In this document: positions 10,393 through 52,299 of the stretch, one piece after another
How positions within the stretch are numbered: position 1 is the stretch's first letter
Layout: each line of letters begins with the position of its first letter
NCBI GenBank assembly: GCA_026026165.1
Contig: JAPEUD010000063.1
Span: forward strand, 62,001-126,000
Direction of reading: 5' to 3'
Length of the DNA: 64,000 bases
DNA from: Sarea resinae
Lineage: Eukaryota
Program-made: the position numbers and the translations under genes
The notes under the pieces: generated by a model
Told to the model about the DNA's origin: nothing
What the model saw: only the letters and a program-made list of their open reading frames with translations
Database searches by the model: none

Positions 10393-11180
10393 ATGGCTCC
10401 CTTCGGAATCCTATATAGCTATGTGCCCAACGCGCGCATCTTGAAGGTAAGACCAAGCATCGCCCCCATGGTCCCTGCCCTCCTGCACATTCACACACTC
10501 ACTCAATATTCATCCGAATCTAATATATCCAGATCCAAGCAGCGGCGCGTCTGAACAATCTCGAGCTCGAGCTCGCCCCGGACTTTGCCTTTGGGCAAAC
10601 GAACCGGTCTCCCGAATTCCTCGCCAAATTCCCGCTAGGCAAGGTGCCCGCGCTGACGTGCGCGGCATCCTCGGAGGCGGCGGCGGGGGCCTCGGAGGAC
10701 ATACATCTGGTCGAGTCCGACGCCATCGCGCAGTTCGTGGCCGAGAGCGGGCCATTGTCGTCGCAGCTGCTGGGGGCGGGGCCCCTGCAGCGCGCGCAAA
10801 TCAGGCAGTGGATCTCGTTTGCCAGCGGCGAGGTCATGGACCATGTGTTGCCGTTGGTCGGGTGGCGCGTGGGCATGGGGCCGTACGATGCGGCGGTCGA
10901 GTCGCGGGCTCTGGCTGCGCTGGAGAGGGCGCTAGGGTGTCTGGAGGCCCATCTCAAGGTGGGCAGGACGTGGCTTGCGACGAGCGAGAAGCTCTCCCTG
11001 GCTGATCTCTCGCTGGCCTCGTCTTTGTACTGGGCCTTCATGCAGGTCATTGATCAGGCAATGAGAGAGAAGTATCCGCGTGCTGTGGAGTGGTATCGAC
11101 GCACCGTTGGGAGCCAAGGTGTCAAAGACGTCTTCGGAGAGCCGATTTTCGTTGAGCAGCGGAAGGAATTCAAGCAGTAG
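10393..11180 (+). CDS. Glutathione S-transferase-like protein, EF1-gamma N-terminal type (FUS3/PsoE-like)
   Basis: Exon 1 MAPFGILYSYVPNARILK, intron 10447-10532, then EFLAKFPLGKVP...ESDAI...QIRQW...SLADL. There is no EF1G C-terminal domain. Confidence 0.88.
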
Positions 11181-11354
11181 CACCTACGATCTATCACAAG
11201 GAAACTTTTGGGTTGACAGCTATACTAGAACAAAATGGTATCGTTTTTTTTACTATCAAATGTAGCTACATATTTCTGACTGTAAAGCTCACTCTTACGA
11301 TCACACTTCCGCGGCGCATTGAAATGCTATGAAAGAGCCAGCAGGCAACGTCAT

Positions 11355-13030: not shown

Positions 13031-13371
13031 TGTCAAGAAAATGCGAAGAAATTGACGACCACCGGCCGGGACAAGAAAACCGAGAAAATGAGGGCCATCG
13101 GGAAGTCCTTTTACCTTTCGCTCGGGAGCGCTGATGCAACATTTGGTCGGCGGTGCTCGTCTGCATCTGTGCCTGGTGGATGCGGGTGTCTGCGTTCCCC
13201 GTGCCCGAAACACGCCGAAAATGAGATGTTCATCGGAGAATAAGTGATCATTCTCTGCCCACCACCAACACCGAATATCTCCATAGTAAGGCCGTGGCCA
13301 GACCTTTCCTGACCGGTATACTCATTATATGAGCGTTTGCCACAGAAGAAAAAGAAGTAAGAGGGTTCGAG

Positions 13372-15120
13372 ATGCACACCTCGCAACAGAGCCAGGCCGA
13401 CAACGATGTGAACCAACCTATTCCTCCTATTCCTCTCACACCCCTCCCCAACAGCAATAATGGCTTCGATCACGACGAAGACGAAACCAAAGTCGAAGCT
13501 GAAGACCAACATTCGATGTCATCTTCCCCACCTCCCGGCAGCCGTAAGAAACAAGGATGGCGGTTCCATCTGATATTTGTTGCTCTCTGCCTAACCGTCT
13601 TCCTGGCCGCCCTCGATACGTCCATCATTTCGACCGCGCTGCCAACCATCGCCCGCGATCTCAATTCCGAGAAGCTGTATGTGTGGACGATCAACTCGTA
13701 CCTGCTGGCCTCATCGGCGGTTGAGCCGCAGTTCGGCCAGGCGGCCAACATCTTCGGCCGCCGCGTTCTCATGATCCTAGCCGTCTTGCTCTTCGCACTG
13801 GGAAGCGGCCTCTCGGGCGGCGCTTCGAGCACGGCAATGATGATTGCCGGCCGCACCCTGCAGGGAGTCGGAGGTGGTGGCATCAACACCATGGCAGAGA
13901 TCATCGTGTGCGATCTTGTCTCGCTCCGGGAACGAGGCAAGTATGTTGGCCTCATTGGCGCAGTGTGGGCAGTTGCGGCCGTTGTTGGCCCTGTCGTCGG
14001 CGGCGCATTCTCCCAGCACGTCACTTGGCGATGGGTCTTCTATATCAATCTGCCCTTGGTGGGCGTGTCGCTGGCACTGCTCATTCCCTTTCTCCAGCTC
14101 CGCTATAAGCGTGAAGGGTCTATCAGGGACCGGCTAGCGCGCATTGATTTCTTGGGGAATACCATCCTCGTGCTGTCGGTCATCGCCATCCTGTTGGCAC
14201 TGACGTGGGGAGGGACTGAGCATCCCTGGGCATCCTGGCGTACAATTGTTCCTCTGGTGCTCGGTGCAGTCGGCCTCGCTGCTTTCCTCTTTTACGAATC
14301 TACCCCGTTCTGCAAGGAACCCACGATGCCGATGCGGCTTTTCAGCAACCGCACATCCAGTGCAGCTTTTCTTATGAGTTTCATACACGGCATGCTACTC
14401 TACTGGTCCTGCTATTTCCTTCCCGTCTACTTTCAGGCCATCAAAGACGCGTCGCCGACCCGGTCAGGGGTCATGCTGTTCCCCATTGCGACAGTGACAG
14501 CGCCATTCGGTGTCATGGCTGGAATCCTCATCACTGTCACTGGGCATTACCGGGTGTTCCATTTCGTGGGATTCGGACTGATGACAATAGGTTTGGGCCT
14601 CTTCACCCTTCTAGACGTGCAGTCATCCACGGGATACTGGGTAGGCTTCCAAATAATATTCGGAGCGGGGACGGGCCTCGTCTTCACCAGCTGCCTGCCC
14701 ACTATCCTCGCCGCCCTCCCAGAGTCCGAGGTGGCGACTGCGACAGCAACCTGGACATTCCTGCGCAGCTTCGGCTCTGTGTGGGGAGTTGCGATTCCGT
14801 CAGCCATCTTCAACACGCGCGTCAATACCCTCGTCTCTAGGGTATCTTCTGGCAGCGTTCGCGCCGCGCTCGTCGACGGCGGCGCGTACGAACACGCCAC
14901 GGCTGCGTATATTCGTACGTTCGATGCCGATCCAGCCCTCAAGAGCACAGTCATGGGCATCTACGTAGATGCTCTGAAGACGGTCTGGCAGGCATCCATC
15001 GCCTTTGCCGGAGTCGGATTTCTCATTGCTCTCTTGGTCAAGCAACTCAAATTGCGGGAGGAGTTGAACACGGAGTTTGGTTTGGAGGTGAAGGAGGACG
15101 ACGGAAGCAGTGCGGATTGA
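13372..15120 (+). CDS. MFS drug:H+ antiporter (DHA2, 14-TMS) efflux pump, FUS6-like
   Basis: Intronless 582 aa. Motifs LAALDTSIISTALPTI, FGRR, GRTLQGVGGGG, WRWVFYINLP, IDFLG. Confidence 0.92.
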   Translation: MHTSQQSQADNDVNQPIPPIPLTPLPNSNNGFDHDEDETKVEAEDQHSMSSSPPPGSRKKQGWRFHLIFVALCLTVFLAALDTSIISTALPTIARDLNSEKLYVWTINSYLLASSAVEPQFGQAANIFGRRVLMILAVLLFALGSGLSGGASSTAMMIAGRTLQGVGGGGINTMAEIIVCDLVSLRERGKYVGLIGAVWAVAAVVGPVVGGAFSQHVTWRWVFYINLPLVGVSLALLIPFLQLRYKREGSIRDRLARIDFLGNTILVLSVIAILLALTWGGTEHPWASWRTIVPLVLGAVGLAAFLFYESTPFCKEPTMPMRLFSNRTSSAAFLMSFIHGMLLYWSCYFLPVYFQAIKDASPTRSGVMLFPIATVTAPFGVMAGILITVTGHYRVFHFVGFGLMTIGLGLFTLLDVQSSTGYWVGFQIIFGAGTGLVFTSCLPTILAALPESEVATATATWTFLRSFGSVWGVAIPSAIFNTRVNTLVSRVSSGSVRAALVDGGAYEHATAAYIRTFDADPALKSTVMGIYVDALKTVWQASIAFAGVGFLIALLVKQLKLREELNTEFGLEVKEDDGSSAD

Positions 15121-17246
15121 TCAATGGTACTCAGCGTAATTATGACGTCTGGAAGGAGAGCAACGCTACGTGTTCTCCTGTCCATATATATATTCTTACC
15201 GACCCCGACCGTAGAATCAATGCCCCTGACAACGATTGCCATCAAGAGTAGCTCAAGCTATTCGACTGTAAGTACGAAGCGTTCGTACTCTGACAGAACG
15301 CACAAGAGGAAGTATGAAGCAAATGAGCACAGGCCATCAAAACCTTTCCCCACTTCGCCCTCTTAGCTACGCAGTATGGCCCCTTACATGAAGCACTCTA
15401 TCGGGAGAGTTTGCATCCATCCCAAAAGATGCGACCCTGCCATCTCGAAAGCGTAAGAGTTGGAGTAGAAGCTTTGGAATAATAAAAAAAGATGTATCAA
15501 ATAATAACCTTTGAATCCTAACCATTATTCCCGTCTTAACAAGAACATAGAGACCCCCAGATACGAGTTGAGCACAGTAGAAGGTCGAAATCGCCAACGC
15601 CCTGCGGTAGGCCAGATTCGCCCCCCCCCCCTTTTGTTTCTTTCGACAGGTAGTAAGTCGGTGCTTTAAGAGGGTGAAAAGGCAATCGTGAGTGCTGGTA
15701 ATAGGCACAACAGTAACCAGCCGAGTCAAAAGACTACTATAACCCGCGGTCTTTTTGGCCCACGTAGGACTAGGTTTGCCCATTTACTGTCTACAGTACC
15801 TTACAAGAGAAGAAAACAAAGATTGATAGAGCTTTTATCAGTACTAACTCAACAAATATCTATAAATTTGTCAAACTATCTGAATCAAAAGGGGAAAAAA
15901 TAGTCTCTCTTACTATTCCTTTCAAGTAATTTCTTAAGGTAAACATAGGAGACAATTAACCTACCTTACCAACCTACCTACCTCACACTACAGCGAGAAA
16001 TAAACTAAAACAACAACCACATATCAACCTAAACCAATACTATGTAGGCCTTCCTAACTCTGCCTACCCAACCCCAATTCCCCCCCTCCTCCCACCAACA
16101 ACCCCAAATTCAGTCACCAAAGATTTCTCTCCTCTCTGGAGAGAGACCTAAAGACCTTCCTCCTCAAAGACCCCATCGGACGAGCCTTCGGAGCTCGCGC
16201 CGGGTCGGGCGTCGGGTCGGGTCGGGGTAGGGTAGCGGGCAACGGCGCGCCGGCGCGCGCGCGCGCATACTCTGCCTATCTAGGTAATTCGTGCTCTAAG
16301 CCGGAGGTAAGAAGAGTTCGTACTACTACTGCGCACGGTACTTCGAGTAAGGCCGTAGTAGCGGAACGGCCCTCCCCACCCCACCCCATCCCACCCCAAC
16401 CCAACCAGCCAACCACCAAGCCCCGAAGCCGAGCCCGCCAAGCCCGCCGAAGCGAGGAGGCGCCACCAGCGCGGGCGGCGTGTCGAGCCGCCTAGGTAGG
16501 TGAGGTAGGTACTCGGAGTAGAGTTAAGCCATGGTAGGGTCAGGGAAGGGGAGGGAAGGTAAGGTAACGACAACGACGGATCCATGATCTATCCATCCAT
16601 TACTACTACTGCACCACCAGGCTCGCTTGCTTGGTTTGCTTGCTTGCTGCATCGCGCACTGCCGGACTCGAAAGGGCTGGTCTCGCTCTACTACTCTAGG
16701 GTCTGGAAGAAAGAGGAAGGTGCTTGACCTTGTAGTTCGGTAAGATAGGCAGATTGCGGAGATGCTTTTTAGGAGGGCCGAGCGAGGGAGGGACGGATGC
16801 GAGGGTTGGACCGTGGAGAGAACAAGACGTTGTCAAGACCGTACGATTTGTGATATGGCACTCCGGCTTATACTCCGTACTTGATACCAAAGACCTGTTT
16901 GGTATTTTGAAGTTCTACCTATCGAGACTACTCCCTGTGCCTATCTAGCTCGCTATCATAAATCAAGATTTCGCTACCTATCCGCTTTGCTTCGCCTTGT
17001 GAATAAAACCTCAAACCCATGCTGTGATATCAGTGAGAGTAGAGAAAAACAAAGACGAAAAACGAAAGTGGAACAAGACAGAGTAGGAGACCGGCTACTC
17101 GAGGCAAAAACGGAAGAGCATTACCTAACGATAGACGATGAAGATCGAAAATTCCAGCTCACCACCCGTCCACGTGCCTCCTCTGCTTTTATCTCCCTCC
17201 TGTTTCCTCCGACACATTTTGGACCCACCACCGCCTCGGTAAGAGT

Positions 17247-20562: not shown

Positions 20563-22483
20563 ATGAGCAATCACCATCCTGTCTCGTCCTCACCGGACCC
20601 GTCTACCGTCAACAACAGTCAGGTCGAATCAGCATCATCTAGCAGCTATGCATTTCTAGTCCATTCGCAGCATACGCTCCCTCATAATCTACCTCCAAAT
20701 GTCGATAATAAACCTCTAGCACGCCAAAAGCGTCGCCGCACAAGGTACGGCATATACCCTTTGAGGCGGCATCTCAGAGACTCCACAAGTGCTTCTCGCG
20801 TGACCAACTGAATGTTAACTTAGTGCAGTCCCGAAGACCAGGCGATTCTTGAGGCAGAATATCAACGAAATCCAAAGCCAGACAAGGCAGCACGCATCAG
20901 TATCGTTAACCGGGTAGCACTTGGGGAAAAAGAAGTCCAGGTAGGCGCGTCTCAATCAGTGCTCAAAGTTCGTGCTGATTGGGAGGTAGATATGGTTTCA
21001 GAATAGAAGACAGAACACGCGTCGAAAATCACGACCACTCATGTCTCACGAATTATGGCCGTCGACTGGTGGAGAGTCAGACGGTCAAAGCATCATAGCA
21101 TCCAATCCATCTTCGGATGACGCCGAGCACAACGCCTTTTCTGATAGCTCGCAGGGGAGTGTAGCTGTACCCTGTTCATCGGCAGTGGATGCTATTGAAG
21201 GACAAAGCTCGCAGGATGGTGCATTGTCTTCACAAGATCACTCCGTCAGCAAATCTCTCGAATGCGACATTTCCACGTCAACAATAATCAAACCCGTCAG
21301 TTCGCAGTTGAGCATTCCGTCTTCTCAACCCTCAGAACAAGAAACACGCTCGTCGCAAACCTCAACTGGGCGTTTTCCCTCCTTCACTTCCTCCCAGGGC
21401 AGTCTACGGCCTACCATAGACGAAATGGGATATCTATCGAACCGTCGCCACGTACAACATCTTACTGAGCAAGGAAGCTTTTCGTCGACTTTGCCCGTCA
21501 AGTTCTCAACCTCGAGCACGGGAGATGGAACTTCATATCCTCCAAAGGACGGACAAGGCCGTTCGCTGAAGCGAACGTCATCTCAAGTCAGATTATCCCT
21601 ATCGCTAGACGGGAAAGCCGAGGTCGTTGCAGATGGCGGCAGCTCCCCTCCTCATAGTCAACCTTGCCCTTCAAGTGCGCCAGTGGGACCCATTCGTAGT
21701 CTCCAGAGAAGCTACAGTGACGCCAGCACTCGAGACTCTGCTAATTTTCTGAACCCTGTTCCCTGGCCACGCCGGGCTACGAGTGGGCGATCTCGTGACT
21801 CGCGAACATGGGAGTTCTATTGCGATAGCGACGCCCGTAACTCTCTAACTGCAAAAGCCGAAGAGGAACAAAGCGGGTCGGCAGTGAGCGCTATTGGTCT
21901 TCTTAGATCTCGAAATAGCAATCTTCTTTCGCAGAACAAGAATAAACGCAATGCTCTACTGTCAAGACCGGAGTCTGCTAAACGGGTCAAATCTACCCAT
22001 CAAGGAGACAGGAAGAAGCTTGCGCGGTCATCATCCTCGGCAGGCCGTCTTCAAGCGGGATCCGAGACCGTCAAGCCTGGGGCCATGAAAGTAACAGGCA
22101 AAAACCCGAAAAGCTGCTCCCAGCCAACGCGGGGTCCGTCGCCATCTGGGGATTCCGACAAGGAGAATTGGCTACCGGGGACACACACTGCCGGAATGCA
22201 TCGCCGGGATCACCAGCGACATCATGTCGAGCAGCAAATACAACATGGGGTTCTCAAGGACAACGACCATATTCCGAGTCATAGCAACAGTTTGGAGGCA
22301 GCCCTTGGTCCATCGAGAAGGAGGGTGGCCCGTCATCGCAGCAAGGCTCACTCGGACATTCCGATTTGGGAAGAGAACGAAGAGGTCGCGGATGTCATGG
22401 CGGGATCTCCCGTACAACGAGAAGAAGAGGACCTGGACTGCGTGCAAAACCTTCTTTCGCTCAGTCAAGGGAATTGGCGATGA
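20563..22483 (+). CDS. Homeobox transcription factor (Yox1/Yhp1-like)
   Basis: Spliced homeodomain ARQKRRRT|SPEDQAILEAEYQRNPKPDKAARISIVNRVALGEKEVQ|IWFQNRRQ across two introns. Conserved RTWEFYCD and C-terminal DCVQNLLSLSQGNW. Confidence 0.9.
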
Positions 22484-29479: not shown

Positions 29480-29876
29480 GTGATTCTGTCATCACAATAG
29501 ACTAGACTCGGGGATTGTTGTAATTGTAACATTTGAGGGCGTCGCGATGTAGGAATCTTACTAGCAAGTCAAGCATGAACCCGTCGGGAGGAAGATCCGA
29601 GTACTGCAGCAGCGTCGGCAATCTAGCCGGCGGTTAGTGCAGGTGTGCTCGCTGAGGCGCATGAACTGGACGTCATTGTTTGTTGTGGCTCGATACATAC
29701 CCCGCAGTCGCATCTAGACCCTTCAAGACCGACCCACACCTTTCTCGTGAGATCGCGAAGAAATATTAATAATGGTCCTTCAACCGCACGACTACTACTA
29801 TCGTCGTTTTCGAATCAATTTACTCTGGAGTACACTCCTGCCAAAGAACAATACCCTTTTCAACCCAATTGTACAT

Positions 29877-29905
29877 CCACCACCACCACCACCACCACCA
29901 CCACC
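29877..29905 (+). repeat. (CCA)n microsatellite abutting the start codon of the Zn-dehydrogenase
   Basis: Perfect CCA/CAC run directly before ATG 29906. Confidence 0.9.
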
Positions 29906-31374
29906 ATGGCATCCACTATGCGCGCCGTCAACTACGACGGCCCTAACAAAGTCAGCATCAAAGACGTGCCCATCCCCACGATCGAGCATCCCGACGATGC
30001 AATCATACGAGTCACGACAGCAGCTATATGTGGGAGTGATCTGCACATGTATCAGGGACGCACGGCGGCAGAGGCGGGCCTGACCTTTGGCCACGAAAAC
30101 ATGGGCATCGTCGAGTCCGTCGGCGCTGGCGTCAGCCTGATCAAGAAGGGCGATCGCGTCGTCATGCCGTTCAACGTCGCCGACGGCCGCTGCCGCAACT
30201 GCGAGGAGGGCCGCACCGCCTACTGCACCGGCGTCAATCCCGGATTTGCCGGCGGCGCTTATGGATACGTCGCCATGGGGCCTTACAGAGGAGGGCAGGT
30301 ATGGGTTCCTTGTTGCCATGTTGATGTCTTGGAGCGGAGGTTGACGCTTTGCTTTGCCTAGGCCCAATACGTGCGCGTGCCGTACGCCGACTTCAACGCC
30401 CTGACGCTGCCGCCGGGAACCGAGCACGAGGCCGACTTTGCGCTACTGGCGGATATCTTCCCGACAGGCTGGCATGGGCTCGAGCTCGCGGGATTTCGAC
30501 CAGGCATGCTTGTCACCTAAGAAGACCAGTCACATATATGTCTAACATATGAGGGATAGGAGAAAGCGTGGCAGTCTGGGGTGCGGGCCCTGTAGGCCTC
30601 ATGTCTGCCTACAGCGCTGTCATTCGTGGAGCTAGTAATATCTACGTCGTCGACCGCGTGCCGGAGCGGTTGGCGGCGGCAAAGAAGATGGGCGCCACGC
30701 CCATTGACTTCACCGCGAGCGACCCCGTCGAGCAGATCATCGAATTGAATGGCGGCATGGTCGACCGTGCCGTCGATGCCGTCGGATACCAGGCCGTCGA
30801 CTCGTCTGGCAGCACCGAGAAACCCAACGTCGTGCTCGACGCCCTGATTCGCGTCACCAGACCCACCGGCGGCCTGGGCATCCCGGGTCTATACGTGCCT
30901 GCCGATCCGGGCGCCCCCGATGCGAACTCGAGAGAAGGCAATATTCTGATTCCGTTTGGAAAGTTGTTCGAAAAGGTATGTCATGATATGATTCCTTTAC
31001 GAAACTATACATGAAGTGCCCCCATGTCACACTTTGGTTTGGCATTTCCCCTTCCTCCCTCCACCTTATGGGTATGTCCTGTAGTAGTATGGAAGAAGAA
31101 AAGAAAAGGAGAGAACTAGGAGAAAAGGAAAGATTGCAATTTGCTGAAAATCCGCCACTCCAACCAACAGGGCTTGACGCTCGGCACCGGCCAATGCAAC
31201 GTCAAGGCTTACAACCGCTATCTCCGCGACCTCATCATCGCCGGCCGCGCCAAGCCGAGTTTCGTCGTGTCGCACGAGATCGGCATCGAGGATGCACCGG
31301 CGGCGTACGAGAAGTTCGACAAGCGCGTCGAAGGGTATACGAAGGTGTTGATCCATCCGAATGGACCGCTGTGA
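29906..31374 (+). CDS. Zn-dependent MDR dehydrogenase, glutathione-independent formaldehyde dehydrogenase-like
   Basis: Motifs ICGSDLH, GHE, DGRCRNC..C, GGQAQYVRVPYAD, ADIFPTGW, GAGPVG, DAVG, GQC. Three introns. Confidence 0.9.
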
Positions 31375-31599
31375 GATGGAGATGGAGATGGAGATGGAGG
31401 AAGAAACCTATGCCATCTAGCTACCTCGGTCCTCTATGACCGTCTTTCCTGTAGTATATAGTAACTGCAAGTGTACTGATTACCTGGTCCTCTTCGATCC
31501 ACTTTGAAGGGTAAAATATCAAGAGTACAATAGTGTTGGTAGGAGGAGGAGTCACTTGACCTGTTTGCTCCTTGGTTGCAGATAGGAGTAACCATGTCA

Positions 31600-32010
31600 A
31601 GATCAGATAACAATACTAATTCAACAACTACCTGTTCTTGAATTAAATAGAAGGCAGCAAATAACTGCCTCTAGGGCAGCGTTAGTTCTAAGACTCTCTA
31701 GCTAAGATCTCTAGGTCTAGGTTAGGCTAAGTATAGAAAGTGCTTAAGGCTTGATAGGTAAGTAGTGTTAGAAGAAACTCTCTAGATGAAAAGAGTGTAG
31801 TGTCTTCTTCTTCTCTCTATATCTCTAGTTCGTTTCTCTAGGTATTCTTGCTATAGCTCTCTAACAAGATAAACAACTATAGTATTAATATTGTTTAATA
31901 CAACAGATCTATAGGTTATAAACAGCGTAAGAAGGCACACTTATAATTCTATACCTACAAGCATAGTAGGCAAACAACGACTTATAATAACAGTTACTCT
32001 GTATAAGGAG
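31600..32010. other. AT/TpA-rich decayed sequence, RIP-like
   Basis: Dense TAG/CTA/TATA, few CpA/TpG, no ORF. Sharp compositional contrast with flanking genes (judged by eye). Confidence 0.6.
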
Positions 32011-33399
32011 AAGCGGCAGCGGGCCCCACGGTCGCGCCACTTACAATTCCCCCAGCAGCTAGCCATCAAAGCGGCCCTCTATCTACCCGCCTGCAGGTGT
32101 GTAAAGGGCCTATAAGGCCCCCTTATCTGTAGCCCGCTAGCAGGACAGGCAGAGCACGGGGACGAAGCAGCACGACCACGAGACTGGATGCGTATGGCGT
32201 TGACGTACGATTGCCTCCTTGAGAAGATCTGGGCCATGGTGATTCTGCCACGTACGAACGGACGAACGTGACAGGGGCGCTAGGGAGGAGGGCAAAGAGG
32301 GCGAAGGATTAGGCTAGAGCATAGAAGACTGCTGTCGGATCTCTTGATACGTCGAGTATAGGGTTAACTTGCTAAGCGTCCGCAACTGTTTCCGTACCAA
32401 CACCATCTTTAGATTCCGATGTTTTGTTCTTTAAGCTTTAAGTACCTGATAGCTTGGATCCGATGTTTTCGGATGCTTTTAGGATAGTGCTATACTCCCT
32501 GATAATCCGCGTTTTTAAAATTGTGATCTCAGAATCTAAAGGGTTAGCCTAGAGCATCTTTGCGCGTGCCTTGTGATCGTCCGCGCCGAGACCACACTTG
32601 GCACAGGCTATGTCCGTGATTTCTCAAAGGCGCGCCTTAAGAGTCAAGCTCGTCTGACAATAGCAGGTATATTTAACAATAAGATAAACAAGAGAGAGTA
32701 GAAAGAGATTAACAGAGACAAGGGGTGAAACGATGGCCGAATATGCTATTTCCAGTGGCAATATTTTCGACGTGATCGAAGAAGACATCTAGATATTCAA
32801 ACTGCATGAGCTACCTGTTCCTAGTGCCTAGTATAGAGGAAACAACTTACAGTTCACTCGCTTTAACAGAAAGACCTGTTCTATCTTCGCAGTGATAGGA
32901 GAGAGATGATGCTCTCTGGGAGACTCGTTGTCGAGATTCCAGCCCTTAGGCATGATATGTTTGAGGATTGATTGAACAATCTCAGTGGGTAGAAAGGAGA
33001 AAGGCATGAGAAAGACTTGATGTAAACGTGGCCACTGCTAGACAGGACCGTTGAAACAGGCTAGATATGTGGATTGACTGGTCAAGGAAACCAAGAGCCA
33101 CTGAGAGGGAATTCCAAAACTCCGCAGAGGTCTGCTCGTGATCCAGGGGCCGTCACTTTTGCTAGGGTGATAGCATCATCGGGTACGGATTCAATGAAGA
33201 GAGAGTGAGTGAGCGAGAGAGAGCGATAGCAAGGTAGACTGCCTAGACCGATCAAGGCAGAGGATAAGTCCCTGAACAATTCCTTAGCGCTCTCATAAGG
33301 CCTCTGTACTCTGCTTGTTTGCGGATTCGGGGTGCCAGGAAACCAAAGGGGTGATGGGAAATATCAGGGATCACCAGTGGGCCCAGCGATCGGGCTGTG

Positions 33400-34350
33400 A
33401 ACCAGGTGGTTTCATTCATCTAGATGACGGGAAATATCCACCTTCGAGTCACTATTCGAACGAGAGAGTGAAAGCGGCCCCCCAACCTGTCGACCTCCGA
33501 TATCCGCCGTGGGGGCGTCCTCTCTCCTATTCAACAATATCGAGAGAATGTTCTCGAGATTCTTTGGTTCGACCTTCCTGTACGCAGACTGGAAATCGAG
33601 CATTCCAGTCCTCGACTGGTATGCTGAGAATGTGTGATGACCTGGTCTATGGCCCATCATAAAGTCTCTGTTTTCTGCGCTCGTTGCCGCATCTAACGTG
33701 TAAGAAACTTCTTTCCTCCAAGCATATCCGGTGAGCCGATCTCTCAAGCCACACGCGTATCGTAATCCTGAAATCTCTTGTGAGACTTGTCCCAAACTCT
33801 GGACTATCGGACACGAGGTGGTCTGTGTTCATCTTCGGAGAACTGATTTTTTCAGCATCGACGGCCGCGCTTGAATCAACCTACCTGATTTTGCTCCTTT
33901 CGACCTTTTCGGATCTTGCTAAGATCTGATCTCGTTCTCGAACACTCTATCTATCAGGGCTAATGTAAATAGCAGGCGACGAACTGTCACCGGCTGCAGA
34001 TTTTGTTGATAATAAAGACAAGACAATCTGTTTGAATTCTCTCTCGCGCTTCAGTATAGGTATCCAGTATTTAAAGAGATAAGTATTAGCTTTTACTAAA
34101 TATAACAAACCTAGATTAAATAGAGTTGTAGTAAGGTTCTAAACAATACTCGTAGAAGCTAACACACTAATATCAGATCTATAATAATCACGAGATTTTA
34201 GCACATCCTCATTCTTGTATTCCTTCTTACAGACATTCCGCATCATGCCGAGTCTGTGAATGGCCGTGCTGAAACGCTCAGCTTGGCGTATATTGATAAG
34301 GCTACTTACTGCGGTGGCGCTGGCTGCAGTCGGCACAGTTCCTTCCACTG
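33400..34350 (-). pseudogene. Fragmented DUF3435-like tyrosine recombinase (Starship captain-like)
   Basis: Collinear fragments in different frames: TAIHRLG...EYKNEDVLKSRD (about 34265-34190), LLFTLALIDRVFENEIRS* (about 33980-33920), and CGLRDRLTGYAWRK...RDFMMGH...TFSAYQSR...DFQSAY...LNRREDAP (33755-33510). The order matches the RPG / LALA.D..F / YxxRR / MGH / catalytic Y / RDPRAP pattern recalled for DUF3435. Stops and frameshifts are present. Confidence 0.7.
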
Positions 34351-35618
34351 ACTGGCAGCTCCAGTCGCTTGCGCACCTCTCTGTCGTCTTCTTCGTAGAC
34401 GGGCCTGACGTAGACGTCTAAGACCACTGGACCAGATAATCTGATGGTCCCAAACCCATGGACCTTTTGGACCGTCTAGATCTTTTAATTTTAAGCTTCT
34501 AAATCATGTCGGATTCGCCCCTCGGATGCTCCTTTATAGTTGGTGATTTATCCCACATCGCGTATCTATCCGCGGTTTCCCTTTGAAGAGTAAGATATCC
34601 GAGAAAACTGGTTTTCACTGAAGAGGAATACATATAGAAATGCCTGATAGAAAAGGCTTGGCCGTCTCAAAAGTCCAGATAGTCCAAGCAGTCGGTTCAG
34701 GACCCTTGGACCAGATCACCGAGGAGCGTCCTGAGAGATGATCAAGTCCTCTGATACCATTAGCGGAGATTCGTTAGGGCTTTGGCGCACGCCCGTGATG
34801 AGTGTTGGTTTCCTCGGTGGGCCAAGAGGTGTCTGGTGCGATGGCTTCGTCTTCTATAAGGCGGTTGACCAGACCGTTTGGGACATTTGGACCACTGGAC
34901 CATCGACAGCACTGCATAAGGTACATGGCGGCAACGGTTCTTGGAAACAAGCGATACGCAAGCAATATGAGCTGGGTGAAAGTAGATTGAATTTAGAATA
35001 GGAATTGATAGAAATCCTTGGTATCATATATAGAGAGGAAAGATTCTGGGAGCGGGCCTCGCTGGTTAAGTAGTGAATTTTGGCTGATTGCACTAGCAGT
35101 GAATGTGTCTGTGTGCACAAACTACCCGGTAAGTGCCCATTACCTACAGGCAAACACACGGGTGCGCGGGGTAATAAGAAAGCAGTGAATGTGATGGGAT
35201 CCGCTCGCAAAACCACGTTTGACAGGAAGCTTCCAATGCTGCCATCTAGGTCCGAGCATGTCAACCAACCCAGAAGAAGATGACAGGGAAATTCTCTTAG
35301 ATCCGCAACATATGGAGATAGGTGCTTTGGTATCCGGGAAGGCACCCGCATAAGGAATATACGCGAGCGAAAACGGATACAAAGTTCGCTTTCGTGCCAT
35401 GCGCCTCAGCCCCTGTCCTCCCCTCAACAGACTCCAATCCCAGCGCTTTCATTGCCAGCCGGGACACAGAGACAAGAACAGCATTATGGGGTTCCGACCG
35501 TAGACTAGGCGGTCCATATCATATCCCACATGATCCACCGTCGCAGTTTTGCTCTTGTTGATCTCGAACTGTAGGGAGCAGCAGTAGATAGTCATCAAGC
35601 ACACGCACGCCCCCGCGC

Positions 35619-36622
35619 TCACTGACTCAAGCCACGCCATTGCGCAAACCACCTCCCAAACCACGCGACGGCCTGGTCCTCAGCCTCGTGGCCCTGCTTA
35701 TTTTGCTTCTCATCGGTCGGATCGCCACGGATGCAAAATCCGTGTTTTGCGCCGTCATAGACCACGACCTCGGTCTCGACCTCGACTTTCTTCGACAGCA
35801 CCGTCTGCATGATCGCCAGGTTCTCCTTTCCAAGCGCCATATCCTCGGGCCCGACGGCGACGCTGAGCGGCAGCTTCACGAGCTCCATGTCCTCGGGCAG
35901 CTTGAGCTGAGACGGGTGGCCTGTGAACCCGGCGTCGATGAGCGAGAGGCCGTTGGCGGCCTTGACGCTGTCGCGCGTGAGCAGCGCGACGTGTTTGCCG
36001 CCCCAGCAGAACCCGGCGGCGCCGACTGGGAGGGCCGAGGCTTCGTTCTCGCGCAGCGCGCTGAGGAAGGCGACGACGCGGGGGTGGCTGATCGAGGTGC
36101 GAGTACGGATGAGAGAGGGTAGCGCGTGGTACAAGGTTACCGGGAGGTAGTAGCTGAGAGCGCAGGATCGAGCGTTAGTGTCTGGTATCCCAGCATGGAC
36201 GGGGTGCCAGCGGAGCGGTAGGACGTACATTTTCATGATATTGGCCCACAGGCCCGCGTCCATCAGCTTTTCCATCATCGGCTGCACGTGTGCAGAGCAA
36301 GCGTGTCCTATGGAAAGCATTACAAGTAAGCTTCCGCATCATGTAAACCGTGCACTATTCATAGGAATAAGAGGAACCTACCATCCATGAAATCCGGCAG
36401 ATAGACGCGGAAGTTGCCCTTGCGAGCGTACTCATCGGCCAGACATCTCGAGTTGGGCGTCTCCCAGCCGAATAGATCGGGGATGACAACGACGATGCCC
36501 TTGAGAGGGGAATCGGCGGATGGAGGCTCGGCGACGTAGGTGTTGAGACCGTGCAGACGCGTCGTGGAGCCCTTGGGCGTGCCGGAATGCAGCGTGCCCG
36601 AGAAGCAGTCTCTGCAAGACAT
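35619..36622 (-). CDS. Dienelactone hydrolase family protein
   Basis: MSCRDCFSG start, PDLFGW, LADEYA, YLPDFMDG, nucleophile GFCWGG, HPS, HGFCIRG. At least two introns. Confidence 0.9.
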
Positions 36623-37091
36623 GGTGGCTCTGTCGTGATCAATGCTATCCCCAGTATGCCGAGTATCTCGAAGCGATATCTTGTTCGTCTTTTGGTCTTT
36701 AGGCAATTGAGAGGGGAGAAAAGAAGTAAATGCTTCTGGGAGGAACAGCCAACAAGGGCGGGCGGGCTTGAGTTGGAATTTAAGGTTGGACCTTGACTGT
36801 AAGTAGGTACACATTCCCCGTACACACCGCCCGCGTGGCAGAGGCGGGACGGTGTCACAATTCCGCCGGTGGAGGAACGGGTTCCCCGCTGAGCAATCTC
36901 CTCCCCCCGGACTTCTCCGCTCCAGCAGGGTACGAGGTTTTGTTTCCTCGCGCGGCCCAGTAGGATTTCACCACTATCCGTCAGCTTGTTATCATCAATT
37001 GATTGAGGTGACTAGTTGCTGATCATGAGGATGATTATTGAGTGATTATTAAGTCTACTATGCACTATAGATGTGCCCGCAAAGGGGCTCG

Positions 37092-45503: not shown

Positions 45504-46653
45504 TCAGTCACTGGTCAGGTCGATCGTGATGCCAATTTTTGATTTCTTGATGCGCTTAGGCGTAGAACCTTCGTCCTTCACAGCTTGATCCTCCTCTCTC
45601 TCTCGCTTTACAGTGTTGTGCCCAGCCAATGCACCTTCAAGTTGCTTGATTCGGTCCCGCATTTCTTTCATCTCCGCCTTTGACCTTGTCAGTGTTTAGA
45701 CTACCAATAACAGGCGCGGTCACTGAATCGTAGAACCTTCGCATCAGCCTGTTGGTCCTCAATATGCAAACTTCCCCTGCTGTCGCTATCCACTTTGACT
45801 TTGGGTTGCTGCTCGATTGATGATGGAGTCCTTGGAATGCATCCGAGGCTTTGGAGTATACCTGGAGGGAATGATCAGTCTCAATGCCTTCTTACGATCT
45901 AAACCCAAATACTTACGCCTTGATCTGTACCCAAATTTGAAGAGAAGTGGCTTTCCTGAATCTCCTTGGGCAGCGGTGAAGCGAACCCCAGAACGACTTT
46001 GCTCACTGATTATCTCACCACGTACAGTTTGTACGCAATGTTCTAGCGCCCATCCCTTGATCGATTCCTCTGCCACTTCTTTGACTGGAACAAATTCAGC
46101 GCCCTTAGCTGGGGCAACCGTACATCGTGGCTCTGACAAGCTCCCACGAGTGATTTCTACGGTAATGGTGCCAAGCTCGCGAAGACGCTGTGGTGTTATG
46201 ACAGTGGTGGTGGCTTCCTCTATAGTAGTCACTGTTATCTTTGACCAAAGCAAAAAAAGTGTAAAGGTAAAGCACAGGGGACTTACTGGTTTTCACCTGG
46301 CCAAATGTATATGCGCATTTCCTCCAAACTCTCTCGCTCTCAGAATATACACGTCGACTGCCGAAAGTCGTAGTGATTGGTAAAACTCGTTTCTTTACTG
46401 TCAAATAAGAGCGATCGTCGAAGTTCCCGTCAAACCAATAACGGATTCTGATAGTAGAACTTCCTTCGAAACTGAAAGGCGTTGCGAGTGTGAATTTCAT
46501 TGAGAACTTTTTGTCCGTGACAGCTTCGATGAATTTCTCAATACCCCGTGGTGTGTGGCCTAAGGAAGTCTCGTCAACATCAGGATCGTCATATTCCTGA
46601 AGCTCTTGACCTTCTGAACAGATCGTGACTGTAGCTCCTTCTAAGGTCGGCAT
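45504..46653 (-). CDS. Uncharacterised fungal protein, tandem paralogue 1 (DUF7918-like)
   Basis: MPTL..VTICSEG.EL.EY.DP, IEA, YWFDG, LGTITV, FKFGYRSR, LGCIPR and C-terminus ...TIDLTSD*. Three introns. Confidence 0.78.
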
Positions 46654-47552
46654 ATTGGCAGGTACTTTTGCTTTGTAAACGTTGATGTGTAGCTGTAAGG
46701 AAGCTGAGCTTAGGACTTAGGACTTGAAAGGCTGGAAATGGCCAGAGTCAGACGTTAAAACAATCAGGTAAGTAGTGCTCGCCCGTCGATGCGTGAGTGG
46801 TGGTGGGATGGTGAAGTGGTGAGCATGTAAGTGTTGGGTTGAAGTGTCAACACGATACCACTCACGGACGAAGATAAGGTATTGAAGTCTTGTAGACCGT
46901 CCTTGGTTCGCGGCGTACTAGGCCAGAGGAGTGGTACTTAGCGCAGGTACAGTGAGATTAGCGAAGTGAGCGAATCGCGAGCATGAGCGATTCAGATGAA
47001 GTGATACCTTAGTAGTAATCAAGACTTGCTGCGTTCCTACTACTCCGGAGTAAGGTATAGAGACATAAGGATCACTAATCTCAAAGCATATCTACCTACC
47101 TAGGTAGTAGTAAGGTGAAAGCGCGGATAAATTACATCAATAAAGTGGAACTATCAGTGCATTCTTCTACGTTTCTTTTACTGCGCTAAACCTCTAGTAT
47201 CAAAGGTGTTTTAGCTTATTGACAAAGAGATACACACTTTCAGTACAGAACAAAATCATGGACACAACATGTCACGATAAGTAGAGACTATGCAACAAAG
47301 TGCAGCATTGAATCCTGAGGATAGAGGAACGTATAGAAGGTGTCAAGCTGTGTGCATTGCAGAGAAGACGATGTTGCAGAGCTACTTCACGCTCTCTGAG
47401 CCGATTGGCCCAATATGACGCCGAGATACCGATTGCAGGAAAGCAACCTTTCTGGACTGAGCGAAGGTAGCCGCGTGAACTCCCTGAGATTAAGAGCTGA
47501 CATCAGGAAAAACCTCTTGAGTACATGCCAATACCGTTTTAGCTACCAAGAA

Positions 47553-48682
47553 TCAATCGCTCGTCAGATCAATCATCTCGCCTTCCTCAAAGACTCTGGC
47601 ACGCTTGACAGTAGAGCCTTCGATCTTGACATTTAGATCGCTGTCTCTCTCACGTTTGACTCCTCGGCGGACCCCCAACGCACTCTCGATTTTCGTTCTC
47701 CGTTTCTCGATCTCTGCTAATTCTGCCTGGTCGAGTGTTAGCCCCACAACCTTTCCATTTCGTATGTCCACTGACCTCCAATATCCTCGCCTCATCTCCT
47801 TGATCGTTTCCGATGCCACTTTGCGCTGTGATTGTGCGGGCAGAATCGGCTTCCGATGACTTCCTGGAATGTGAAGGGGATCGCGGTATACAGTGAAGCA
47901 TTTGCAGAGCCCCTAGCGTGAGTCTGAGCAGTCAGTCTATCAAATTGTGAAGAGCCGAAACTTACCCCTGGATCGATATGAAAACTTGAATACGAGCGGC
48001 AATCCCAACGGCCCAAGGGCTGGGTCGAGCGTATCAGTCCGAAGAGGAGGTACACCAACGATTTCATCCCTCACGCCTTGAATTGAATATTCTATAGCCT
48101 TTCCCTTCAAGGCCTTCTCGGAGACTTCCGTGGGTCCGAAGGTCGGGGCATCCATTGGCAGGCTGTGAAAGGTTGGAACTATGTTTCCTCGAATGATACA
48201 CACAGTAATGGTGCCAAGGCCTCTCAGGACCTCCGGCGGCGTCTCAGTGGCAGACTCCTCTGCTGTTGTATCACCATATTAGTAAGTCAAAGTTTCATGA
48301 CGTACCTACAGCCATGGGATGTTTACTTACCTATGTTCAATGAGCCAAAAGAGTACTTGCACTTTCTCCAGGTCTTATCGTTATTATGGTATTCTGTATG
48401 GCTATCAAAGTTCATAGTCTGGTGCTCTGGTACGATTATCAAACTATCCCCGCTGTTGTTTGAACCGTCGAACCAGTAATCGATAGTGGCCGCTTGACCA
48501 GGCCCAAATTTGAAACCTTTCAGAAGCTCGAGCTTGATAGAGAACTCGGCACCTGTATGAGCTTCTATGTATTTTTTCCTCTCTCGATCGGGATGGAGGC
48601 CTTGCATATCAGGGTCTTCATACTCGGGTAATTCTCTACCACCCGAGCAGATTGAGACCTTTGCGTGATGCAATGTCGGCAT
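47553..48682 (-). CDS. Uncharacterised fungal protein, tandem paralogue 2 (DUF7918-like)
   Basis: MPTLHHAKVSICSGGRELPEYEDP, YIEA, YWFDG, LGTITV, EVSEKALKGKA, FKFSYRSR, LHCIPR and ...MIDLTSD*. Introns at the same positions as copy 1 for the first two. Confidence 0.8.
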
Positions 48683-49320
48683 GGCTGTTGTAGCGTTGAT
48701 TGGCAGATGTTAAGGCGCCGAAGGAAGAAAGCCGAGTTGACAACCTTCACAATTTGCGAAGACGAGGGTGCGATATTTCAAGTAGCGAGGTAAGTGAAGG
48801 TCGTCTGATGGTTGAGTCTTGATTGGTTGTGGGTGATTCTGTTGTGACCTTATTAGGTGAGTGTGCCAGAGTGTCAATAAGTTACCACGCAAAGATGGGC
48901 TATCGAAGTGAAGTCGTTTGGACGCGTCGGCCACAAGAGTAATTTGACTCGTGTAATCGGATGAGAGGTAACAATCGTGTGTGAGTGATGATTAAGAAAG
49001 AGACCGGTCATCATGAATTTATGAATTGGTGTGTAGATGGTATTGACATCCGCTTTATTCTACTTGGGAAAAGTTATGTGCAAGGTCATTCACACATTTT
49101 AAAGAGTGAGGTAAGGTAGTAAGGAAGATTGCTTTGATTAAGTGTTGTTGTTGGGTCATCTCGCTGTGTGCTCTCCCAGGTAATTTCTTTATCTTATGGA
49201 CAAGATGACCAACTACAATCCTCACCCCGTCATCCGCCTACCCGCTCTCTCTTATATTACCCCTCAAAACCCAAACCCATGCTCGTTTCAAAGACGGAGC
49301 TGGAGCGTTTGAAAGGGGCA

Positions 49321-50435
49321 TCAATCGTCTGTCAAATCAATTATCTCTCCCGCTGTCCTTTCTGTCTTGACTCTCTTCGAAGCGGGGACTCTGACGGTCT
49401 TTCCGCTGCCCACCCTCTCACGTTTGATGCCTTGACGGGCCGCTAACGCCACCTTAAGCTTCTTCGCACGTTCCTCAATTTCTGCAATCTCTGTCTTCAG
49501 ATATGTCAGTGACTGAGATTTGCCATGGTCAACCAACTTACTTCGATCTTTTCGGTCTCATTGCCTTGTCCATTGAGAGCACCGATATTCTGGGTCTGAG
49601 CCGCTTCAATGGCTGGCTGTGGTGTCCTGAGTAGAAGACCGAGGTTTTGAAGGGTTTCTATAGGGTATAAGTGTCACTACCTTTTGCAAAAAGCTTGGCT
49701 CAGAGTGCTCACGCCTGGATCTGTATCGAAATTTGAACAGGATCGGTAAATCATGGGCCCTCTTAGACGGATGGAAGACGGTTGTATTCGAGGCCGGCTC
49801 ATTTTTGATCATGCCCCTTATACCTCGAACGAAGTGATCAACGAATTTCTCTGTGTCGGGAATGATGCCGGTTACTTTCGCTTCTTTAACCGTGGGCAGA
49901 TTGTTTTTATCAGGCATGCGGTAAGAATAAGTTCCCAGTTTTCCCCGAGATATTTTGACCGTAATCGTGCCTGGTGCCTTGAGGTGTAGTGGTCGACCCA
50001 AGTGTTCGCGACCTACCCCAGGAACCTGTTATCTCAAAGCTAGAGAATGAAAAGACCTTGAAGATTACCCTGCTGCACCTGACCGAAGGCGAATTTACAG
50101 TCCCTCCAAACCTGGTCGTCCAGAAAAAAGTTGACTTGACGATCGATATGTCTCTCAACCGGCAAAAGGTCTCCCTTGACGACTACAGAATCAGTGTGGC
50201 CAAAGTCGCCGTCGAACCAGTACTTGATCTGGACATCATCCTTGATTCGAGCTTTGGACCCTTTGGTAAAGTCGACCTTGAATGAAAATTCTGCCCCTGC
50301 AGAGGATTCGATATACACTACGGCTTCTCGAGCCTGGGGGTCAGCATTCTCTTGTTTGAACCCAGGGTCCTCGAACTCTTCGAGGTCTTTTCCCCCGGAA
50401 CAGATTGTGACCTTGACATTTCGCAAAGTCGGCAT
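49321..50435 (-). pseudogene. Tandem paralogue 3 (DUF7918-like), apparently frameshifted in exon 2
   Basis: MPTLRNVKVTICSGG, YWFDG, GTITV, FKFRYRSR, ...IIDLTDD*. With the orthologous splice sites, exon 2 goes out of frame just before GTITV (about 49980). Confidence 0.6.
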
Positions 50436-52299
50436 GATGGCTGTGGTGGCAACGAAGACTGAAAGTTGGCTCGATCAAAGATGTTGATTGCAGACAGTGG
50501 GAATGTACGAGTGTGGATTGGAAGAATTGTGTGCCTCGGCAGCGGTAGAGACAGAGTGAGTAAAGTGAGAACGAAAGATGCAACCATTCACAGGGACGAT
50601 TTGCCTGAGCTCAAGTTGTTGGGATGCTCAAGAATCGTGAGATGGCTTAGATGGCAAAATCGGACTAGACAGCCCTGAGAGGACTTCAGTTGCTACGTGA
50701 ATGTGAGGCTATGCATGATTCCAGGTCCTTTCACTCCAATAGTTGATGACTTTGTCATGTTGTTGAACAATGCCTGGTGAATGATCTAAGGAGATTCACC
50801 TTAGCAAAAAAGTACTGAAATAAGTAATGTCCTCAATGATCAACATGCACACCGAATCCTGCGACTTTCTATTCTCCTTCGTCTAATGCGGCCATACAAT
50901 ATCCATGCCTTCTCCTTATGTTGATCTCGTCTTTGTCTCTATAAGAGTATACAGTCATTTGCCCTTCGCAATCCTTGTGCAGTAAACGCTCATTAGAAGG
51001 CTTGAGGAATGCGTACTGGATGTCTGGCTTATCTCCCACGAAGATCAAGGGTCTCACTCGGTGAGGACTCCATGTGCTCGGCTTGGGACCGGCTTGAAGG
51101 CACCTATAGTCGCGTTTACGCACTGATGACAGAAAGATGGTCGGTGGAGAGGCACTGGCTGCATTTACACTGCCATCCATATCTCTGCGGTGGTGAATTA
51201 ACAATCATCTGGCGGCCGCTGTTTGAGAAATACTAAATGTATAGAGAGATATTGGTCGTGGTCTTCTGGTAGGTAGGTAACTTTCAAATGAGGATTTGAC
51301 GTCGATAAGTACGTTATCGCATCCCCTCTTAACCACGACGCACATCGAAAACATTACTACACTGGCTTAGTCAGTGTCTTCTCTAACCCATCTAGCTACG
51401 ATGAGCGCCCTAAAAGGCTCCCCTAGATTCATTGAGCGAATATCTGCTCTTAAGCAAACAGCGGTAATAGACAAGGAGCGCCGACAGCAGCTAGATACAA
51501 TTCAACAAAGAAGCGTATCTGCACACGCAGAGATAGCAGCCGCGCTTCAAACGCTATCGTTCGCATCCGACTATCTCGCAAAGAAAATCACATCACTAGA
51601 AACAGAATCAGAATACGCCGACAATCACCGGATAGAGCTCTAAGAGGCTGTGCAGGAGCAGAGATGCTCTGAGGGTACTGAAAATCGATCTGCGATAATC
51701 ATTCACTTCTTCAGCGTCCTCGAACTGTTACGTCTGCCTCTCTTCAACAGATAAACAAGCCTCTACAATCAGCATATACCTTTTCCTAGTTCTCTAAGTG
51801 CTAGTGACTTAGCTGTTTGTGTTTGCTTTCACTTTCTTCTCTACTACACTTTCTGTTCCTACATTACTAACTTATCTATTTCGGCTGATACTAGCAGTCA
51901 GGGACCCTTAGTCCTTGACTGCACCAGGTTATCGACATAAGGCCAGCATCATCTGGCAAGTCGTGATCTTGCGGATTAGTTATGAAGTCATGATTTTCTG
52001 ACGACACAATTAACGCATACGCCTAATCACAATTATTAACACTCATTCAACGACATTTTAGTATCGACGGTCTGATTGCTCTCTATCTTATAGAAAACAA
52101 GTCTTTCCTTCTATATGACTAGGACTAGAGGCCTTAAGTTATTTAAAGATATAACTCTCTAACACCATTAGAGTTTCTATTCTAGGACCTCTTACATAAG
52201 TTTCTTTTTGAGAAATAAAAGAATCTATTTAACGACAGGCTAAGTCTAGAGAAGAGAGGATAAGGAAGCTGTTTCTAGCTTCATAATAATTAAATATAT

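Follow-up and report, generated by a model that had tools for sequence, protein, structure and literature searches.

What kind of mobile element left its traces in the gap between two convergent genes of the 64,000-nucleotide stretch of DNA analysed here (contig JAPEUD010000063.1, assembly GCA_026026165.1; hereafter the window), and does any part of that element survive? The gap measures 4.2 kb and is bounded by the stop codons of an alcohol dehydrogenase (ADH) family gene at 31,374 and of a dienelactone-hydrolase gene at approximately 35,619. A preliminary description had seen in it a derelict Starship-like element, that is, a remnant of the giant transposons whose captains are DUF3435 tyrosine recombinases. 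The evidence set out below indicates, with a probability of roughly 0.7, that this 3'-to-3' gap is a small graveyard of mobile-element debris, in which a dead and truncated part of a DUF3435 recombinase gene stands out most clearly. As far as the sequence tells, no active recombinase can be made from this fragment, and the locus would no longer be mobile.

Identity of the recombinase fragment

The assignment of the minus-strand remains to the DUF3435 tyrosine recombinases, already made in the preliminary description, is correct at the level of sequence and statistically solid. The closest database protein, P0001 (251 aa), aligns with the minus strand at 42% identity (tblastn E = 8e-38), and P0043, a protein of 828 residues from the same cluster, matches at E = 2e-33. 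With stops read as X, the Pfam profile of DUF3435 (PF11917) is matched over positions 104-255 of 418 with 27.0 bits (E = 2.8e-6), above its gathering score of 25.8 bits, and the uninterrupted 138-codon open reading frame (ORF) at 33,412-33,828, scored alone, falls slightly under that cut-off (24.0 bits, E = 2.3e-5). When longer proteins related to the core were sought by a word-based search, only one cluster came up; the relatives discussed here come from an exhaustive phmmer search against 1.84 billion representative proteins, which returned 41 matches at E ≤ 1e-3, nine of them at E ≤ 1e-10. In the tblastn comparison, 37 of 42 database proteins match at E ≤ 0.01, all solely within 33,103-34,075 on the minus strand. 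DUF3435 is present in 22 of the 25 database proteins that were scanned with Pfam, the three without it (P0027, P0035 and P0038) being weak repetitive matches. A family hidden Markov model (HMM) built from nine full-length relatives recognises the relic at E = 3e-29, at profile positions 261-443 only.

The full-length relatives are single proteins of 840-1,112 residues, of which the relic represents approximately residues 250-446. The relatives are from Pezizomycotina, and two of them carry species names, Bipolaris zeicola and Dothistroma septosporum; the accessions of these two do not occur in the accessible part of the supplement of PMC9156397. A profile of 11 relatives, compared with PDB sequences, gave no recombinase match and weak zinc-finger matches in the tail only. 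The gene models of several close relatives (P0001, P0002, P0006, P0010, P0013 and P0043) themselves begin at or just before the block with which the relic begins (F.Y.KG..L.ES.FK), without the N-terminal half. Their contigs may be short, introns may have been ignored in gene calling, or truncated copies may be widespread.

Anatomy of the relic

The homologous part of the gap runs from 34,096 to 33,508 on the minus strand and comprises approximately 196 codons, corresponding to the latter half of the catalytic domain with its YxxR, H and Y positions. It consists of two segments in different frames. The upstream segment (33,983-34,096; VKANTYLFKYW...EREFKQIVLSLLSTKSAAGDS) is collinear with the core and resembles the N-terminal parts of relatives, namely residues 18-48 of P0001 at 42% identity (tblastn) and, over shorter spans, P0013 at 52% and P0006 at 61% (E = 4e-5 to 2e-4 in a 1.65-kb search space). 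A one-base frameshift at 33,979-33,982 separates this segment from the core, the high-scoring segment pairs in frames -1 and -2 abutting at 33,983/33,978; the sequence reads ...GDS S up to the break and RLLFTL after it, where relatives have (E/D)DS(M/L)RLLL. The core (33,508-33,978), interrupted by an in-frame TAG at 33,921-33,919 and a TGA at 33,831-33,829, contains LLFTLALIDRVFE (within 33,978-33,937), YAWRK, which is the YxxR motif (33,726-33,712), MMGH (33,660-33,649), SAYQSR with the position of the nucleophile tyrosine (33,627-33,610), DFQSAY (33,597-33,580) and LNRREDAP (33,534-33,511), all on the minus strand. Its frame continues, open up to a TGA, through 33,412-33,507, where no homology was found. 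An intact open reading frame is absent, as two in-frame stops and one frameshift lie inside the aligned block.

Within these limits the core is well kept. It retains 16 of the 22 covered family columns that are conserved at ≥ 90%, among them the predicted catalytic positions Y373 and R376 (YAWRK), H398 (MMGH) and Y408 (SAYQS), numbered in the 11-sequence family alignment. Which columns count as catalytic was taken from the published R-K-H-R-Y scheme and its note on YxxR (PMC11162782); in the accessible text of that source, Starship recombinases follow this scheme with YxxR in clades 1 and 3 and HxxR in clade 2. In the proteins closest to the relic, the corresponding motifs are YAWRR and S(S/H)YQ or SxYQS. 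Motifs of the YAWRK type are the norm of the family, because the closest relatives carry the same motifs and clades 1 and 3 have YxxR, and the divergent captain lineage that had been read from these variants is not borne out. The TAG of the core falls at the W303 column (P0014 numbering), which holds tryptophan in 10 of 11 aligned relatives.

All seven peptides quoted in the preliminary description are present on the minus strand where it had placed them. Six lie inside the stretch with far-above-chance DUF3435 homology; the first, in which RLG (34,255-34,247) precedes EYKNEDVLKSRD (34,222-34,187), has none. The accompanying picture of a shattered gene holds for the one frameshift and the two in-frame stops and otherwise overstates the damage, as the remainder of the gene is absent, not broken.

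The missing ends of the recombinase

Upstream of the part that is preserved, the family carries the blocks NMRTVLNL.LF..LMVD.C.RGGEIA.....P.HMCL.W.DV.FY.FQ, including the invariant first arginine R208. For the corresponding N-terminal approximately 260 codons, with the first catalytic arginine and lysine and the core-binding domain, there is no match below profile position ~261. The same family profile finds nothing in the read-through frames of 34,076-35,600 (with 200 shuffles as control), and the best match of a sensitive tblastn search beyond 34,075 reaches 20.4 bits. The peptide RLG...EYKNEDVLKSRD lies in a 92-codon open frame (34,139-34,417, minus strand) that is in frame with 33,947-34,138 across one TAG. 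Against the family HMM this frame scores -2.8, which ranks it 140th of 1,473 pieces; the read-through frame that holds the peptide has no Pfam match at E ≤ 10; and the best Smith-Waterman score of the 92-codon frame against the N-terminal regions of relatives is equalled by 355 of 500 shuffles, that is, at chance level. The frame may once have been part of the recombinase gene, though this is not demonstrable. The earlier placement of the peptide at the N-terminus, together with the proposed change of RPG to RLG, consequently finds no homology by HMM, Pfam or Smith-Waterman, and RPG is a poor candidate for the motif of the first arginine, which aligned relatives carry in RGGE/RGCD-type motifs. 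Read by eye, 57 nt upstream of 34,096 resemble an intron whose removal would restore a family-like spacing between "EDV" and "KA"; this reading was dropped because the flanking residues do not align.

The other end is similarly reduced. P0043, with its full 640-residue tail, matches nothing past 33,508, and a C-terminal HMM was negative (score 1.2). Two places could nevertheless be considered for post-catalytic sequence. One, at 32,386-32,540 (minus strand), is a weak candidate for a remnant of the conserved block "HGS.AAASR..DP.F..Y...L..K", which comes after the catalytic domain in relatives; there P0002 aligns with 25.4 bits (tblastn, 32,386-32,499) and P0003, P0006 and P0007 are collinear. 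This score is reached by 5 of 200 dinucleotide shuffles, and the candidate lies approximately 870 bp farther downstream than relatives predict and is not matched by P0043. The other, weaker still and in the core's own frame, is an alignment of P0024 at 33,103-33,327 (23.9 bits, 25% identity). Both candidates are hints only of the approximately 500-codon tail.

RIP-like patches

The gap also bears the marks expected of repeat-induced point mutation (RIP), which prefers the CpA to TpA context. Two indices were computed from dinucleotides, TpA/ApT and the substrate index (CpA+TpG)/(ApC+GpT), for which the usual thresholds are approximately 0.89 and 1.03 and the whole-window values are 0.65 and 1.22. 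An AT-rich patch at 31,250-32,500 is RIP-like by these measures (TpA/ApT 1.83 and 1.31; substrate index 0.73 and 1.00), most clearly at 31,501-32,000, where TpA/ApT is 1.83, the substrate index 0.73 and the GC content 0.36, and the composite RIP index exceeds 0 in five consecutive sliding windows of this patch. A milder patch at 34,001-34,500 (TpA/ApT 1.16, substrate index 1.00, GC 0.42) spans the upstream end of the relic and the first peptide, RLG...EYKNEDVLKSRD. The recombinase core (33,501-34,000) is not RIP-like (0.59 and 1.15). The TpA-rich patches mentioned in the preliminary description are real, with TpA/ApT of 1.83 and 1.16 against 0.65 window-wide. The change that would have produced the TAG at the conserved tryptophan, TGG to TAG, is of the RIP type, because a G-to-A change corresponds to CpA to TpA on the opposite strand.

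The strongest RIP-like patch of the window lies elsewhere, at 15,250-16,900, with TpA/ApT up to 2.46, partly at a GC content near 0.6. It sits between the transporter gene of a secondary-metabolite cluster (described below) and an NmrA-like gene, and a six-frame read-through Pfam scan of this patch was empty.

Other debris in the gap

No intact gene with a Pfam match is found in the gap, so that the description of the locus as a 4-kb gene-free island stands in this respect; what it had not included is a second relic. This is a DUF3716 domain at 32,010-32,198 on the minus strand, with an in-frame TAG at 32,081-32,079. With the stop read as X, the domain matches Pfam PF12511 over profile positions 1-58 of 59 with 33.6 bits (E = 3.7e-8), above the gathering score of 22 bits, and the two halves scored separately reach 16.9 and 14.1 bits. 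The ORF pieces involved are 32,079-32,279 and 31,941-32,078, with a possible start at ATG 32,237. None of the 22 DUF3435 relatives carries DUF3716, and a word search among longer proteins gave no relatives of this relic.

The domain is known from several settings. The class II transposon REP9 of Zymoseptoria tritici has it in two genes (PMC8232023). A Fusarium host gene whose TAG is corrected by RNA editing contains it, as do ordinary host genes, such as a telomere-binding protein orthologue (both in the accessible text of PMC10776026). Among Starship cargo it appears at least once, in the supplement of PMC11162782, and not in the accessible part of the supplement of PMC9156397. The DUF3716 domain in the gap would be the relic of another mobile element; that it belongs to a small gene with an edited stop is much less likely.

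Three clusters of the motif (T)GGACC(A) in direct orientation (repeat families D1 and D2) lie at 34,418-34,475, 34,670-34,716 and 34,866-34,905, in the region that the missing N-terminal codons should occupy. They represent a short dispersed repeat, because small pieces of them recur on other contigs of the source sequencing run, X1: several contigs match 34,673-34,711, and on one contig 33 other letters stand between 34,715 and 34,885. Together with the DUF3716 relic, this repeat suggests that insertion happened here more than once. In a blastn self-comparison no second copy of the gap sequence was found within the window. A 183-codon ORF at 34,854-35,405 was treated as non-coding, having no Pfam match and a low Atlas recognition (950).

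Flanking and neighbouring genes

On the left, the gap is flanked by a four-exon gene for a Zn-dependent alcohol dehydrogenase (29,627-31,374, plus strand; Pfam ADH_N and ADH_zinc_N), and on the right by the dienelactone-hydrolase-family gene (35,619-36,967, minus strand; Pfam DLH, E = 1.2e-11), both with the 3' end toward the gap. The ADH is nearest to glutathione-independent formaldehyde dehydrogenase, NCBIfam TIGR02819 being the top match for three exons (126.6, 113.1 and 27.6 bits), scores that are far under the equivalog cut-off of 637 bits.

Farther left, positions 1-15,117 hold a secondary-metabolite cluster that the edge of the window truncates. It comprises a polyketide synthase-nonribosomal peptide synthetase (PKS-NRPS) hybrid with alpha/beta hydrolase, glutathione S-transferase, cytochrome P450 and major facilitator superfamily (MFS) transporter genes. 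The PKS-NRPS gene (613-8,181 and 1-558, minus strand) has the domain order KS-AT-DH-MT-KR-ACP, followed by a condensation domain that continues beyond the window. To the right of the cluster there are many multi-exon genes. Among them, a homeodomain-like exon at 20,818-20,943 (plus strand; 21.4 bits, under the cut-off) lies directly 5' of a 497-codon ORF at 20,990-22,480 (plus strand), which is without a Pfam match; the two probably form one transcription-factor gene. Three tandem paralogues with a DUF7918 domain occupy 45,789-46,716, 47,943-48,709 and 50,043-50,474 (minus strand). Housekeeping genes follow, for saccharopine dehydrogenase, a Band 7/SPFH-domain (prohibitin-like) protein and an L7Ae/L30-family ribosomal protein. 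The saccharopine dehydrogenase piece (311 residues; 54,868-55,800, minus strand) is 92% identical to a protein from a Sarea resinae metagenome-assembled genome and 71% identical to the runner-up, values that place the host among the Pezizomycotina close to Sarea, in a sparsely sequenced lineage.

Is there a Starship around the relic?

According to the accessible text of PMC9156397 and PMC11162782, a Starship is recognised as a delimited insertion with direct repeats, compared with an empty site, or by DUF3435 near DUF3723, ferric reductase (FRE), patatin-like (PLP) or NLR genes; predicted elements shorter than 15 kb were discarded in the latter study (PMC11162782). The debris in the gap itself spans at most 4.2 kb. 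No DUF3723, ferric reductase, patatin-like or NLR gene was found among the 142 ORF pieces of at least 110 aa in the whole window, a scan that left out smaller pieces inside gene-dense parts, nor by six-frame read-through scans of 31.4-35.6, 15.1-17.5, 18.2-21.0, 41.4-43.5 and 50.5-54.9 kb. Within this coverage the window shows no Starship-like region as defined by Gluck-Thaler et al. (2022).

The ends of an element were equally elusive. No inverted or direct repeats of at least 18 nt tie the right end of the gap to sites on the left, a search that direct repeats of 2-16 bp would escape, and published Starship direct repeats measure 2-16 bp (PMC11162782). Curated Starship insertion sites are 5S ribosomal DNA (rDNA) in 23% and AT-rich sequence in 26%. 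No 5S rDNA was found, and Rfam matched nothing, either in the gap at E ≤ 1 or in the window at gathering scores; AT-rich patches do exist in the gap but may be younger than the insertion. At 80% likeness, none of the three sequencing runs compared (X1 together with X2 and X3, both from unrelated organisms of the same study) gave a bridging contig, and X2 and X3 gave no cover of the gap, a result that carries no weight as to an empty site. The orientation of the relic would put any cargo leftward. The label of a Starship-like element cannot be upheld where no defining accessory gene is present in the window, and any element-level account around the relic is unproven.

Weighing the explanations

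In the account preferred here, a DUF3435-encoding element would have inserted into the 3'-to-3' spacer and would later have been inactivated. One inactivating change may have been the G-to-A mutation at the conserved tryptophan codon (TGG to TAG), of the RIP type, and RIP-like mutation would have hit the flanking patches too. Loss or overwriting would have removed the N-terminal approximately 260 codons, which encode the DNA-binding half with the first catalytic arginine and lysine, and the approximately 500-codon C-terminal tail would be left at most as weak traces. Several points weigh against this account. RIP is read from dinucleotide indices only, without an unmutated copy for comparison. 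The two post-catalytic candidates are weak and mutually inconsistent, and they hint that events were less simple, for instance that there was an internal insertion or that two copies were involved. The 92-codon upstream frame is in phase with the relic, and a more sensitive, RIP-aware method might find the N-terminus. Finally, the core still has 16 of its 22 conserved columns and stays open over 138 codons, yet the equally conserved N-terminal motifs give zero signal, a silence that is surprising because the core is so well kept and that is accounted for only by an assumed deletion or heavy RIP.

Alternatively, the insertion may have been a cargo-less, Crypton-sized unit of 3-4 kb with little beyond a recombinase gene, which decayed in place so that the whole 4.2 kb is the element. 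The full-length relatives, at 840-1,112 residues, correspond to 2.5-3.3 kb and would fit the gap, the frame upstream of the relic is in register with it, and weak collinear post-catalytic hints extend down to 32,386; DUF3435-bearing repeats were, moreover, initially annotated as Cryptons (PMC9156397), and most predicted Starship-type recombinases are without a delimited element, for which several reasons are discussed (PMC11162782, accessible text). Such a unit should nevertheless have left the strongly conserved N-terminal motifs, which are undetectable, and its C-terminal block approximately 870 bp nearer to the core than the candidate is. Neither the DUF3716 relic nor the GGACCA repeat belongs to the recombinase's relatives (DUF3716 in 0 of 22), and DUF3435 recombinases are reported to form a clade separate from Crypton recombinases (PMC9156397). 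A Crypton-sized insertion is given only a small chance. A larger role for the relic is less probable again. If it marked the 5' end of a degraded Starship that ran leftward, the genes on the left would be stranded cargo, with the formaldehyde-dehydrogenase-like ADH, a mitochondrial carrier, a GT8 glycosyltransferase, an amine oxidase and the NmrA-like gene as candidates, and the cargo might reach to the patch at 15.3-16.9 kb or even to the PKS-NRPS cluster. Biosynthetic clusters have been reported in Starships (PMC9156397), a second RIP-like patch does lie 15-19 kb leftward, and the ssfC gene of a Starship formaldehyde cluster is weakly similar to glutathione-independent FdhA (PMC11623301, accessible text), the family of the neighbouring ADH, which by analogy is a resemblance to the formaldehyde-resistance cluster and not evidence. 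Set against this, no DUF3723, ferric reductase, patatin-like or NLR gene, no terminal repeat of at least 18 nt and no 5S rDNA were found; the left genes show no RIP signal and have normal spacing; the patch at 15.3-16.9 kb is without a Pfam match; and the relic is without the very N-terminus that should abut the 5' end of such an element. Surviving cargo is, on balance, unlikely. Slightly more doubtful still is its boldest form, in which the relic is a beheaded captain whose cargo of at least approximately 18 kb, possibly approximately 35 kb including the PKS-NRPS cluster, still lies leftward, having arrived by giant-transposon transfer and then become fixed; were it true, a block including the formaldehyde-dehydrogenase-like gene would have reached a Sarea-like fungus by Starship and been fixed upon the death of its captain.

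The inactivity of the locus could itself be questioned, as A-to-I editing of sexual-stage "pseudogenes" has been described in Sordariomycetes (PMC10776026) and a UAG edited to UGG would make the recombinase or the DUF3716 ORF conditionally functional. The TAG of the recombinase lies exactly at the conserved tryptophan column, and the Fusarium graminearum DUF3716 gene PSC58 is among the edited pseudogenes (PMC10776026). The recombinase, however, also has a TGA and a frameshift, and both its start and its N-terminal half are missing. The DUF3716 ORF would have only approximately 98 codons, lies in a RIP-like patch and has no relatives by word search. The nearest named relative of the housekeeping gene is Sarea resinae, no Sordariomycete, and editing outside that class is called undetermined in the accessible text of PMC10776026. 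Rescue by editing is very improbable, and the graveyard of mobile-element debris, with its dead DUF3435 fragment, remains the preferred explanation.

Comparison with known mobile elements

The significance of the locus, as it stands, is little, as surveys routinely filter out dead fragments of Starship-type recombinases. It is useful chiefly as a marker, indicating that a Sarea-related, sparsely sequenced lineage hosted DUF3435 elements and has RIP-like mutation, and it would gain greater weight if the adjoining genes or the PKS-NRPS cluster proved to be cargo.

Among Starship captains, of which HhpA of the Starship Hephaestus is named as the only functionally validated one (PMC11162782, accessible text), the relic shares the Pfam domain DUF3435, the YxxR in place of HxxR that is found in clades 1 and 3, and the positions of the histidine and the nucleophile tyrosine. 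Unlike them, it keeps approximately one-fifth of the protein, its first catalytic arginine and lysine were not found, it contains stops and a frameshift, and no element, cargo or repeats can be assigned to it. For Starship-type genes and elements inactivated by stops and RIP, the term "derelict" has been recommended (PMC11162782, PMC9156397). The captain of Wallaby, with its many premature stops, is likewise dead, but it has kept its place at the head of a delimited element. The derelict regions of Macrophomina phaseolina present the reverse situation, as cargo and accessory genes are kept and the captain is lost, whereas here only a piece of the captain is recognisable.

Fungal Cryptons (CryptonF), which are a few kb long, resemble the locus in that they encode a tyrosine recombinase and that the 4.2-kb gap is of Crypton-like order; they differ in that the relic matches DUF3435 and that no other domain of Crypton proteins appears in the read-through Pfam scan. 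Crypton recombinases are related to those of Starships, and Cryptons are DNA elements of conventional size (PMC11162782). With REP9 of Zymoseptoria tritici the locus shares DUF3716 in a mobile-element context, but here there is no integrase/DDE gene or REP9-like structure and the DUF3716 domain has a stop. The closest parallel is found among fragments. The survey in which the Starship families were defined predicted 10,771 Starship-type recombinase genes in public fungal genomes and set aside 2,402 as fragments or pseudogenes of fewer than 203 residues (PMC11162782, accessible text), a class that the relic would join because its recognisable codons number approximately 196 against that limit. 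Dead recombinase fragments are common in Pezizomycotina, and the relic is a further instance of this known type of fossil.

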